This document shows positions 10,335 through 45,359 of a DNA stretch of 64,000 nt, piece by piece. Location of the stretch: NCBI GenBank assembly GCA_019322805.1, contig JAHWIC010000003.1, forward strand, positions 964 through 64,963, written 5' to 3'. How positions within the stretch are numbered: position 1 is the first letter of the stretch; each line of letters begins with the position of its first letter. The position numbers and the translations under genes were made by a program. This DNA is from Candidatus Woesearchaeota archaeon. GTDB lineage: Archaea > Nanobdellota > Nanobdellia > Woesearchaeales > JAHWIC01. A model generated the notes under the pieces. That model ran no database searches, was not told where the DNA came from, and saw only the letters and a list, made by a program, of their open reading frames with translations.

Positions 10335-10958
10335 ATGTACTTCAGACCCACCAGCAAGAAAAAGTTTCTAGGAATAAACACCTCAGATACAGAGCTAAGG
10401 GATATTTCAAAGGCATGGTTTGTCATATCACTTGCTTTTGGGATTGTGCTTACAAGAAGGTCTCCATTGCCGATTGGTTATGGATTCATTCTTGCTGCTT
10501 TAACAGTCGGCGTTGGTTTTGTTTTCCACGAGATGGTTCATAAGTTAGTTGCACAAAGGTTTGGATGCTTTGCTGAGTTCAGGGCATTCAACCATATGCT
10601 GGTGCTGGCTTTGCTCATGTCCTTGTTTGGATTTATATTTGCTGCTCCTGGCGCAGTGATGATAGCAGGCCCTGTTGGCAGGAGAAGAAATGGAATGATA
10701 TCTGCAGCAGGAATAGCAGCAAGCCTTGCAATAGCTTTATTGTTCCTTTTTGTGTTTTTGACTGCTCCGTTTGCTTTTGTTAAAAATATAGGGCTTTATG
10801 GCTTTGTGATTAACAGCTGGCTTGCTCTGTTCAATCTTATCCCTCTTGGAAATTTTGATGGCGTGAAGGTGCTTCATTGGAACAGAATAATTTATATAGT
10901 AATGGTCATAATGGCACTTATGCTGATGTTTTTGCAGGGAGTGCTAGGGGGTATTTAG
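10335..10958 (+). CDS. M50 (site-2 protease) family metalloprotease, minimal form
   Basis: HEMVHKLVAQ (HExxH) and NLIPLGNFDG motifs within a multi-TM protein. Confidence 0.75.
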   Translation: MYFRPTSKKKFLGINTSDTELRDISKAWFVISLAFGIVLTRRSPLPIGYGFILAALTVGVGFVFHEMVHKLVAQRFGCFAEFRAFNHMLVLALLMSLFGFIFAAPGAVMIAGPVGRRRNGMISAAGIAASLAIALLFLFVFLTAPFAFVKNIGLYGFVINSWLALFNLIPLGNFDGVKVLHWNRIIYIVMVIMALMLMFLQGVLGGI

Positions 10959-10975
10959 CTTCGCTAAATACTTAA

Positions 10976-11089
10976 ATCCTCCCCATTAGTGCACAAGGAG
11001 AACGCCATAAATTGCTGACGCAATTTAATTTCACAGTGTCCCTCCCCTAACAGGCTATGCACAACAGAACATACAACTAAATATGCAAG
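10976..11089 (+). repeat. B-element copy 1 (77-nt conserved block plus tail ending in ATGCAAG)
   Basis: 10976-11052 matches 45106-45182 with 2 mismatches. It has an internal hairpin AAATTGC-tgac-GCAATTT (11009-11026). The tail CAACTAAAT-ATGCAAG provides the ATG of the next ORF. Confidence 0.9.
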
Positions 11090-11463
11090 GTGTTTTGATG
11101 GACGATGATATAAAGTTTAGATGTCCTTACTGCGGGAAATTAACCAGGCCTCATGAGAGGTATTGTGATTTCTGTGAGCAGGACTTATCAAAGGTCAGGG
11201 ATAAGTTAGAGGCAGAAGGAAGAGAAAAAGCCTGCTTTATAGCAACTGCAGCTTATGGGACTCCTTTTGCAAGAGAGATTGATGTTTTGAGGGACTGGAG
11301 GGATAACAGTTTGAATACAAATTTTTTTGGTTCTTTGTTTGTTAAGGTTTATTATAAAGTGAGCCCTCCTATTGCGAGATTTATAGCAAAGAGGAAAAAA
11401 TTAAGGAAGTTGGTTAGGATTATCTTAAAACCAATAATCAGTATCATTAGAAAAAATCAATAG
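11083..11463 (+). CDS. Zinc-ribbon protein with CFIATAAYG...LRDWRD motif domain
   Basis: CPYCG...CDFC zinc ribbon, then CFIATAAYGTPFAREIDVLRDWRD and a hydrophobic tail. The last codons and the stop lie inside R-element R2. Confidence 0.6.
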   Translation: MQGVLMDDDIKFRCPYCGKLTRPHERYCDFCEQDLSKVRDKLEAEGREKACFIATAAYGTPFAREIDVLRDWRDNSLNTNFFGSLFVKVYYKVSPPIARFIAKRKKLRKLVRIILKPIISIIRKNQ

Positions 11464-44556: not shown

Positions 44557-45042
44557 ATGACTGTAACCCTAGGAACTGTATATGCAGTAAGCGGAGCAGC
44601 GCTTGCATTAGGCGTTGCTGGACTAAGTACAGCATTTGGTGTTAAGGCAGCAGGAGTAGCAGGAGCTGGAGCAGTAGCAGAAAAGAAGGAGCACTTTAAG
44701 AATGCATTAATCCTGCAGGCATTGCCGCAGACACAAACAGTCTATGCATTTATAACAGCACTGCTTATCTTGATGGGTGCTGGCTTATTAGGCGGCGGTG
44801 TAAAAGAGCTAAGTGATGCACAAGGCTTAGCAATGCTAGGAGCTGGAGTGGCTGTTGCAGTAACTGGAATATCTGCTGTAATGCAGGGATTAGTTGCCAG
44901 TGCAGGAATTGTATCGTGCACTAAGAATCCAGATGCATTTGCGCCAAGCATTGTATTTGCTGGACAGTGTGAGACACCTGCTATATTTGGTTTTATTGCA
45001 TCGTTGATATTACTGGTGGTTGGACTTGGAGTGCTAGGATAA
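44557..45042 (+). CDS. atpK: A-type ATP synthase subunit K (proteolipid), duplicated four-helix form
   Basis: 161 aa with two hairpin repeats. Helix 2 has LPQTQTVYAF (Gln at the carboxylate position). Helix 4 has GQCETPAIFGF (Glu retained). Strong SD AAGGAGGT. Confidence 0.9.
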   Translation: MTVTLGTVYAVSGAALALGVAGLSTAFGVKAAGVAGAGAVAEKKEHFKNALILQALPQTQTVYAFITALLILMGAGLLGGGVKELSDAQGLAMLGAGVAVAVTGISAVMQGLVASAGIVSCTKNPDAFAPSIVFAGQCETPAIFGFIASLILLVVGLGVLG

Positions 45043-45058
45043 AATTTTTCAGTGACAT

Positions 45059-45077
45059 TAAATCTCGAAGAGATTTA
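45059..45077 (+). terminator. GAA-triloop hairpin just after atpK
   Basis: TAAATCTC-gaa-GAGATTTA starts 17 nt after the atpK stop. Confidence 0.35.
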
Positions 45078-45105
45078 TGGCGCTCAAAGAAAAATTTTAT
45101 CTTTG

Positions 45106-45229
45106 ATCCTCCCCACTAGTGCACAAGGAGAACGCCATAAATTGCTGACGCAATTTAATTTCACAGTGCCCCTCCCCTAACAAATCTGTTAGAGGTACGC
45201 AACTAAATTAGAGGAATGGAAAATGCAAG
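45106..45229 (+). repeat. B-element copy 2
   Basis: 45106-45182 matches 10976-11052 with 2 mismatches. The tail is GCAACTAAAT, then a 14-nt insert, then ATGCAAG. Confidence 0.9.
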
Positions 45230-45359
45230 CATACTCACTAGCGTTCGTAGCTTACATTTTTTAACATAAGAAAAGGTGAAGTAAAAAATGCAAGCATACT
45301 CACTAGCGTTCGTAGCTTACATTTTTTAACATAAGAAAAGGTGAAGTAAAAAATGCAAG
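45223..45359 (+). repeat. Perfect 65-bp tandem duplication (2 full copies plus first 7 nt of a third, which is the atpE start)
   Basis: 45223-45287 is identical to 45288-45352. Each copy carries ATGCAAGC..., a 13-codon ORF (MQAYSLAFVAYIF) and the AAAAGGTGAAGTAAAAA SD region. The third ATGCAAG at 45353 starts atpE. Confidence 0.95.

Follow-up and report, generated by a model that had tools for sequence, protein, structure and literature searches.

Two nested families of small repeats at gene junctions of Woesearchaeota archaea

The DNA analyzed here (64,000 nt, referred to as the window, whose positions are used as coordinates) lies within a 97-kb contig of an archaeal metagenome-assembled genome (MAG) of Candidatus Woesearchaeota (G000; 1.52 Mb, 37.7% G+C, 92.8% complete), which we compared with two other species of the same genus, G001 and G002. 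On its plus strand, two membrane-protein genes, one for an M50 protease (stop codon at 10956-10958) and atpK, encoding the A-type ATPase proteolipid (stop codon at 45040-45042), are each followed by a copy of a 77-nt block: copy A at 10976-11052, between the M50 gene and a Zn-ribbon gene (locus A), and copy B at 45106-45182, between atpK and atpE (locus B). As an earlier note on this DNA had claimed, the two copies are nearly identical (75 of 77 positions, with T/C differences at positions 11 and 63) and both stand 3′ of a membrane-protein gene. The central 52 nt are the same in both, and 100 shuffles gave no such match. Both copies are internal to the contig and have unique flanks. The hairpin AAATTGC-tgac-GCAATTT noted within the block is present as the tip of a longer stem (AUAAAUUGC/GCAAUUUA), and the 77-mer alone folds modestly better than its shuffles (z of −1.65 and −1.77 for the two copies).

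We interpret the block as two nested, non-autonomous repeat elements specific to Woesearchaeota, namely a gene-junction cassette and a palindromic mini-insert, with a probability of roughly 60%. The suspicion that further copies exist and that they spread recently was borne out: seven BLAST matches were found first, then ~19 copies of a cassette core and 17-18 copies of a hairpin module in this 1.52-Mb genome, and relatives in the order carry them too. The earlier idea of one 77-nt element was right in that the block is a repeat and wrong in that it is not a single unit, as the core and the hairpin insert form two separate families, one nested in the other. The core (~45 nt) consists of box A (CCTCCCCAYTAGYGCACAAC), 5-10 variable bases, and box B (GTGTCCCNCCCCKAACA, i.e., (G)TGTCCCNCCCC(K)AACA); in most family members, one or two CACAACTAA boxes lie between box B and the next gene. 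The CCTCCCC of box A is invariant among 18 aligned copies from seven genomes. Module-free short cores (~45 nt) precede argC, an epimerase gene, leuC, and others in G000 and are also found in nine other genomes.

A hairpin that overlaps the stop codon of the upstream gene, here called P1, precedes the core in every copy. This hairpin covaries: in an alignment of eight P1 sequences, 91.7% of cells pair, and compensatory change is seen at three pairs at the stem base. The P1 variant TTTAGCTTCGCTAAA ahead of box A is common to at least eight genomes of different families, locus A included, which indicates that P1 travels with the element. Over P1 and box A, locus A is identical by eye at ~44 of 49 positions to locus L025 of G019, a genome of a different family. 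The family has either moved between lineages or is strongly conserved. In the commonest subfamily, the upstream open reading frame (ORF) stops 19-20 nt ahead of box A, at a TAG in the 5′ arm of P1, and because this ORF ends inside the arm, the element supplies the upstream gene with its stop codon as well as with a hairpin. Among 36 hits of a regular-expression scan (~34 true copies), 27 followed a co-directional ORF (≥70 aa) that stopped 14-89 nt upstream, the others mostly having a short upstream gene or lying at a truncated locus. A co-directional gene followed within 260 nt in 26 of the same 36 hits, and convergent junctions were few.

We then considered how far the cassette extends beyond this genome. 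A strict box A pattern matched 10 of 201 genomes of the order, against five genomes with one match each for the reversed control pattern, and a sequence profile of the core matched 10 of 151 order genomes (eight genera, 1-8 matches per genome). The exact box A, searched in one genome per GTDB species (~185,000), returned 18 stretches, 14 of them from Woesearchaeota/Nanoarchaeota MAGs with the full architecture; the other matches (four bacterial and one viral) were to the 19-mer only, the rest of the element being missing. At the level of sequence, these searches show the cassette to be specific to the Woesearchaeota (DPANN) lineage. A viral carrier was rejected, as the single viral-contig match to box A came without the rest of the element. 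Integron attC sites, origin recognition boxes (ORB), and a coding peptide were likewise discarded in view of the housekeeping neighbors, the dispersed copies, and inter-box indels that are not multiples of three. Rfam gave no match at gathering score in the window and none at E values up to 10 within 10900-11150.

Comparison of orthologous sites established insertion polymorphism, with four insertions specific to G000 relative to G001 and G002 and three sites common to G000 and G002. The M50 and Zn-ribbon genes overlap at a TAATG in G002 and are compactly joined in G001, while ~139 nt are inserted between them in G000. Similarly, argD and argC overlap at an ATGA in both G002 and G001 and are separated in G000 by P1 and a short core, and the APRT and MTAP genes, joined at TAAGATG in G002, are separated in G000 by P1 and a long core. 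Between the genes for EF-2 and EF-1alpha, where G002 and G001 have a spacer of 16-30 nt, G000 carries P1-box A-CACAACTAA upstream of a conserved TATA-type TTTATAAAT box. As the genes of the sister species abut or overlap at the first three of these junctions, the cassettes there are insertions.

At the argC junction, ~33 nt of the old junction, comprising the end of argD, the Shine-Dalgarno (SD) sequence, the start codon, and the first argC codons, stand on both sides of the cassette (local alignment p ~0.02). The old argC start persists upstream of the cassette (G000:C48:22356-22470, minus) and opens a 34-codon relic ORF, MKKVGIMEIAFGDLILPTSAQKVSVPPQTGEVDG, whose frame continues through the element to a TAA that overlaps the new ATG of argC, an arrangement by which translational coupling could be preserved.

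The hairpin module (~35 nt) is situated between box A and box B and has the layout GCCATAAAT-stem-loop-ATTTAAT-GTCRC. In 18 module copies, GCCATAAAT and ATTTAA are invariant, and two apical pairs change on both sides in six sequences, so that the apical stems differ yet stay complementary (TTGC/GCAA, TCGC/GCGA, TCTC/GAGA, TTGAC/GTCAA). Of 151 genomes sampled from the order, 10 contained the module, and a search of the congener G002 returned no matches. Three orthologous sites are free of it in G002: the atpK terminator loop, the element in the L39e-L31e spacer, and the atpK-atpE core. These three comparisons of empty and filled sites support insertion of the module. In the atpK terminator loop, the module lies antisense (45051-45088), where G002 has a plain 3-nt loop (AAAATTTTTC-ATT-GAAAAATTTT), and in G000 the hairpin plus its nested module folds with high stability (z = −4.26).

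The module was also found in genes for structured RNAs. Introns of tRNA genes contain it at the anticodon loop (tRNA-Gln and tRNA-Asp) and at the T loop; it also forms a tandem pair directly 5′ of tRNA-Gly and is nested in another module copy (tRNA-Ser intron, antisense to the tRNA). An antisense copy lies in the RNase P RNA gene (Rfam RF00373, 143.8 bits; G000:C18:163908-164286, minus; locus L134 609-987), which measures 379 nt against a 288-position model. In the leader of the S15 mRNA, five other genomes carry the module at the apical loop of a conserved hairpin that has a plain loop in G000. Taken together, the sequences show a mobile mini-insert that apparently lands in existing hairpin loops in either orientation.

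Several observations accompany these sites. In G077, the module stands in the same RNase P RNA sequence context. The S15 leader loci are L118 (G077), L119 (G100), L122 (G149), L123 (G040), and L133 (G019), five genomes of different families, with the G000 counterpart at G000:C41:33400-33605; their hairpin lies behind a TTTATAAA box (..GAGATAAGCCGGTTG..GCTTATGCTGGAGA..) and could be a ribosomal-protein autoregulatory leader. ARAGORN detected only six tRNA genes in the 92.8%-complete G000, so that interrupted tRNA genes are the rule in this genome. Most of its tRNA genes have at least one intron, T-loop introns included, and escape detection; examples are C7:13950-14100 (tRNA-Gln, two introns), C7:37600-37760 (tRNA-Asp, two introns), and C6:4850-4990. 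The G002 tRNA-Gln has an intron of different sequence at the same position. A three-copy structured element, GGAAAATCC..[module]..GGATTTTCC with flanks CCTATTCGCAAAGG and CTCTGCACTCAG, lies at or near contig ends (G000:C35:160-235, C38:206-279, C50:17334-17404) and has no Rfam match.

Table 1 Features of the two block copies and their junctions (window positions).
Feature	Position	Strand	Sequence or remark
P1 hairpin, locus A	10951..10971	+	GTATTTAGC-TTC-GCTAAATAC; M50 protease stop TAG (10956-10958) in the 5′ arm
Box A, copy A	10978..10996	+	CCTCCCCATTAGTGCACAA
Hairpin module and junction bases, copy A	10997..11035	+	Stem 11007-11015 / 11020-11029; loop TGAC 11016-11019
Box B, copy A	11036..11052	+	GTGTCCCTCCCCTAACA
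Box C region, copy A	11060..11082	+	CACAAC ... ACAACTAAAT; 3′ part of the cassette
ATGCAAG heptamer, SD AAGGTG (11087-11092), and probable Zn-ribbon start ATG 11098	11083..11100	+	Homologous to the old M50/Zn-ribbon junction of G002
atpK stop and terminator-like hairpin	45040..45099	+	TAAAATTTTTC ... GAAAAATTTTA; loop filled by the antisense module copy 45051-45088
Box A, copy B	45108..45126	+	CCTCCCCACTAGTGCACAA
Hairpin module and junction bases, copy B	45127..45165	+	Not in the orthologous G002 core
Box B, copy B	45166..45182	+	GTGCCCCTCCCCTAACA
Box C remnant, SD-like sequence, and native atpE start ATGCAAG (45223)	45199..45229	+	GCAACTAAAT (remnant), TAGAGGAA (SD-like); G002 ortholog: GCACAACTAAGATAGAGGTACATAAAATGCAAGTATTTGG

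To judge whether the cassette is retained once inserted, elements were compared between G000 and G002 with the four-fold degenerate sites of the genes adjoining each of them. At the DUF134/MinD-like junction, the element is 79% identical over 136 nt, against 49 of 99 four-fold sites, and its P1 stem has compensatory substitutions; at the L39e/L31e junction, the element is 83% identical, against 19 of 34 four-fold sites (56%). The EF-1alpha promoter and leader are conserved about as well as the element in the same species pair. Identity well above that of four-fold sites means that the element is either retained for some function or homogenized, and the conservation of its locus-specific parts as well argues against homogenization alone. 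These alignments show a cassette that has, by all appearance, been kept under constraint after insertion.

The near-identity of copies A and B seems to have another origin. The position of copy B is common to G002, where the outer hairpin and the downstream flank are orthologous, and copy B is therefore old. Copy A is lineage-specific, with a P1 of the widespread type and a CACAAC...CAACTAAAT tail of its own. The 97% identity covers only the stretch from box A to box B, module included, and ends sharply at the edges of the boxes. An AAGGAGA between the boxes is likewise seen in the G019 relative of copy A, and the GGAGA at the 5′ edge of the copy A module is part of this core subfamily. We infer that, once the module was in place, A and B became alike through recent gene conversion, copying, or replacement among members of the family, in a direction that is uncertain. 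An ancestral atpK/atpE feature was rejected, five other atpK loci of the order being compact or unrelated.

The earlier note had further proposed that the block hands an ATGCAAG start codon to two unrelated genes. This does not hold, as ATGCAAG lies outside the repeated block at both loci: CAACTAAAT and ATGCAAG do occur at the positions claimed, but 31 and 41 nt past the identical block, and the flanks in between align poorly between A and B. Upstream of atpE, G002 has ATGCAAGTATTTGG at the equivalent position, which makes ATGCAAG the native atpE start. In G000, a perfect tandem duplication (2 × 65 nt, 45223-45352) begins with this native start, and the functional atpE start is now at 45353; the G002 ortholog lacks the duplication, its ATGCAAG running directly into atpE. 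At locus A, ATGCAAG overlaps AAGGTG, a well-spaced SD for the ATG at 11098 (MAQDDFRCPYCG in G002 versus MDDDIKFRCPYCG), and the M50/Zn-ribbon junction reads AGGTGGTTTTTAATGGCT in G002 and AAGGTGTTTTGATGGAC in G000. Given the SD overlap and the equivalent start codon of G002, the ATG at 11083 is probably not the start of the Zn-ribbon gene, for which ATG 11098 is the likely start. The called start at 11083 and several small ORFs annotated across the elements are probably artefacts.

Assembled into a mechanism, these observations suggest that a cassette made of P1, box A, box B, and the CACAACTAA boxes would insert between tightly packed or overlapping co-directional genes, the junction sequence being duplicated at some sites so that both genes would remain intact. 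The ~35-nt mini-insert would in turn land in the loops of existing hairpins, as between box A and box B or, antisense, in the atpK terminator loop. The inserted cassette would then act as an intercistronic spacer, in which P1 might serve the upstream cistron as a 3′-end/terminator or stabilizing hairpin, and the downstream part might form a leader that keeps or brings the SD of the next gene, e.g., AACAGGTGA before argC and MTAP.

Several findings weigh against two mobile elements of this kind. At locus A, a duplication of 12-13 nt is deduced only by way of the G002 junction, a direct alignment of left and right sides giving p 0.36, and no duplication is evident at the MTAP junction; with ~33 nt at argC, ~12 nt at M50, and none at MTAP, there is no fixed length of target-site duplication. 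No terminal inverted repeats (TIRs) were seen in the copies inspected by eye, whose 5′ end is the P1 arm GAGTTTAGC... and whose 3′ end is ...CACAACTAA. Searches for a Y1 transposase (PF01797) and a reverse transcriptase (PF00078) found neither in the 92.8%-complete G000, other transposase families not being searched; the Y1_Tnp search does give matches in control genomes. Finally, the same junctions recur across families (atpK/atpE in f1 and f28, DUF134/MinD-like in f1 and f18), and this recurrence, together with the 79-83% retention, is as compatible with a host cis-element as with a selfish one.

Such a host element might be a conserved cis-regulatory mRNA element, in which single-stranded CCUCCCC and CCCNCCCC boxes would mimic the anti-SD, pair with an internal AAGGAGA or with the SD of a neighboring gene, and tune translation, spread being secondary. 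The cassette is indeed strand-specific, lies between co-directional genes in most copies, and surpasses synonymous sites clearly in conservation. In G000, the 16S rRNA ends 3′ in GGAUCACCUCCU, making CCUCC a copy of the anti-SD; in some minimum-free-energy (MFE) folds, the partner of box A is a GGAGG-type SD or a G-run located 5′ of P1, the GGAG of copy A pairs with the CUCC of box B, and many copies lie in translation-related operons (L39e/L31e, EF-2/EF-1alpha) or upstream of genes for S4, S7, L13, and RpoL (identified from their first residues only). The pairing itself is inconsistent, however. The pyrimidine-purine-pyrimidine arrangement that had been read as SD/anti-SD pairing is found in one subfamily, to which AAGGAGA is confined, and is not a feature of the family: an SD-like segment stands between the boxes in only ~4 of 18 aligned cores, RNAalifold gave no consensus pair for these 18 cores, and the MFE partners of the boxes vary from copy to copy. 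G-runs 5′ of P1 able to pair with box A were found in only 12 of 37 hairpin-bearing regular-expression hits (~31 true copies), where composition predicts ~20%, and this pairing was abandoned as a family feature along with a hand-drawn "P2" hairpin between the boxes, whose register changes from copy to copy. In the rRNA operon, complements of the boxes were restricted to universal GGGGAGC motifs, and mimicry of the 16S 3′ end was left as speculation, given that only CCTCCCC is conserved and not GATC. Moreover, one copy at a convergent junction has no downstream gene, the EF-2 copy lies upstream of the EF-1alpha promoter, the SDs beside young inserts are AGGTGA, which CCUCCCC does not match, and Rfam is silent even at E 10. 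A cis-regulatory element is therefore unlikely as the primary explanation.

A DNA-level boundary between transcription units would place the function in P1 and its U-rich tail, which would terminate transcription, and in the conserved AGTGCACAACTAA behind it, which would be an initiator or 5′-leader start reused by other promoter-like cassettes and from which transcription would restart for the next gene. In line with this, P1 adjoins the stop codon in every case and has a T/A-rich stretch after it, the 13-mer AGTGCACAACTAA is common to a ~35-copy family (...ATAAAAA..CAAGTGCACAACTAATTGTGCA..) whose members stand behind TATA-like boxes upstream of gene starts, and an insertion that splits overlapping genes must still permit expression of the downstream one. 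The A/T-rich stretch of the common P1 subfamily, however, is only ~14-26 nt upstream of GCAC, which is ~8 nt too close for a TATA box under the general geometry of archaeal promoters, and it is unlike the TTTATAAAT boxes at EF-1alpha and S15. In addition, a C-rich tract stands where promoters are usually A/T-rich, the U-tracts after P1 are short (3-6 nt), and GC-rich sites resembling intrinsic terminators are not enriched in the window (17 found versus 13.1 expected), leaving such a boundary a distinctly unlikely account. It is very unlikely that the hairpin part is a bulge-helix-bulge (BHB) intron that the tRNA splicing endonuclease would excise from mRNA leaders as well as from tRNAs. The module does occur in tRNA introns at anticodon-loop and T-loop positions, most G000 tRNA genes are interrupted with only six found by ARAGORN, and a plausible BHB could be drawn by hand for the tRNA-Gln intron; yet the bulges at its splice sites come from parts of the intron outside the module, the mRNA copies have an opposed 4 × 2 internal loop, (C)GCC against AU, instead of two 3-nt bulges 4 bp apart, and copies of the module are also found in antisense orientation and within the RNase P RNA gene. 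That the similarity is due to chance or to faulty assembly has next to no probability: repeats in MAGs carry a general risk of mis-assembly and some family copies are at contig ends, but the shuffles gave no match, both copies are internal to their contig with unique flanks, and dozens of diverged relatives exist in independent assemblies.

If the block does consist of two nested mobile repeats, it may be compared with known small repeats. Pneumococcal BOX (boxA-boxB-boxC), Neisseria Correia/CREE, ERIC, and BIME/REP mosaics resemble it in being short, non-coding, multi-copy, and rich in hairpins, with separable modules, and in forming lineage-specific spacers beside gene ends. These elements are co-transcribed with their neighbors and can act as terminators, mRNA stabilizers, or leaders, and by analogy, the cassette might do the same. 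The present family differs from them in being archaeal (Woesearchaeota), in having 1-20 copies per genome and no TIRs, in its hallmark of two C-rich single-stranded boxes and CACAACTAA boxes after a stop-codon hairpin, and in splitting overlapping genes, with duplication of the junction at some sites. A Woesearchaea genome was among the most dense archaeal genomes in a census of MITEs, transposable elements of the miniature inverted-repeat type (PMC11602168). Like MITEs, the family is non-autonomous, 50-150 nt long, intergenic, polymorphic between close species, and patchy in its clade; unlike them, it is without TIRs, without a fixed target-site duplication, and without any related transposase found (Y1 and reverse transcriptase searched).

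The hairpin module, for its part, recalls REP/REPIN sequences with their RAYT in being a palindrome of 30-40 nt whose foot is invariant and whose stem covaries, found in both orientations, and its nested insertion in the loop of another copy recalls IS1397 and ISKpn1, which insert into REP loops. In contrast to REP/REPIN, the module has no GTAG/CGTC tag, no Y1 transposase (RAYT) was matched in the incomplete genome, and its targets include loops of functional RNAs (tRNA introns, RNase P RNA, and the S15 leader). As TIRs, a fixed target-site duplication, and a RAYT were all lacking from these searches, we do not count the family as a member of the MITEs or of the REP sequences. Transposed tRNA introns were reportedly described in Thermoproteales by Fujishima et al. 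in 2010, and they are alike in that the same short sequence stands at different positions of different tRNAs in one genome; here, only the apical hairpin of the intron is concerned, and it is also found in mRNA spacers, in RNase P RNA, and antisense. Bacterial group II introns of class C insert directly behind intrinsic terminator hairpins, a site immediately 3′ of a gene-end hairpin like that of the cassette, which differs in having no intron or ribozyme sequence and no reverse transcriptase and, in the common subfamily, in carrying the hairpin along with it.

The C-rich boxes are the same as the anti-SD core of the G000 16S rRNA, and KH-domain proteins such as Dim2/Pno1 or aCPSF1 bind C-rich or 16S-3′-end RNA. 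One could speculate, with a low chance of being right, that the cassette is more than selfish DNA and that Woesearchaeota keep it as a portable "operon splitter" providing a stop codon, an RNA 3′-end hairpin, and two exposed anti-SD-like C-rich boxes. A host KH-domain factor, candidates being the termination nuclease aCPSF1/FttA or the Dim2/Nob1 pair that recognizes the CCUCC 3′ end of 16S rRNA, would read the boxes and create a defined site of processing or termination between genes that had been coupled. Transposase-free recombination would bring the cassette to new junctions and lineages, and the mini-insert would be a source of tRNA-intron sequence and RNA expansion segments. DPANN archaea have tiny, tightly packed genomes and yet harbor very small repeats in dense populations, with scarcely any description of where these come from and what they do, and the present family lands exactly in overlapping gene junctions and is afterward conserved about as well as a promoter. 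If the cassette is a processing or termination signal, it would offer a handle on how these unculturable archaea uncouple the genes of an operon, and the mini-insert bears on how RNA expansion segments and the tRNA introns of archaea originate. In the literature, searched by general terms and not by motif sequences, neither the CCTCCCC/CACAACTAA cassette nor the GCCATAAAT hairpin was found described, and Rfam contains neither.

The 8-mer CACAACTA of the cassette has 87 matches in the genome and is common to two other repeat families of G000, which hints at a common recognition site or leader start. One of these is the ~35-copy family, promoter-plus-leader-like (TTTAATTGTT..ATAAAAA..CAAGTGCACAACTAATTGTGCA..CCTARTGATAA) and located upstream of gene starts, and the other is GAAAATTCCTTT-CACAACTA-GGATAAAGG. 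Examples of the 8-mer are found at G000 C18:129193, C47:34435, and C12:23253, and also at locus L040 of G002.

A few features of neighboring genes were noticed along the way. In G001 (C107, locus L039), atpK has an in-frame TGA at a glycine codon conserved in G000 and G002 (..VFA*QCETP..), which could be a sequencing error, a pseudogene, or recoding. An atpK match at E ≤ 1e-10 was found in only 9 of 61 sampled genomes, and some Woesearchaeales encode ORFs of ~1100 aa made of many tandem proteolipid (c-subunit) repeats (G011:C3:123934-126825, G021:C19:10171-13305, and G034:C10:27337-30219). The MTAP matches in G029 and G132 have one internal stop each. Lastly, the EF-1alpha leaders at L091 (G019) and L093 (G029) contain a C-rich tract (CCCCTCC, TTCCCT) able to pair with a G-rich SD (GGGGG), possibly forming an SD-sequestering leader unrelated to the cassette.

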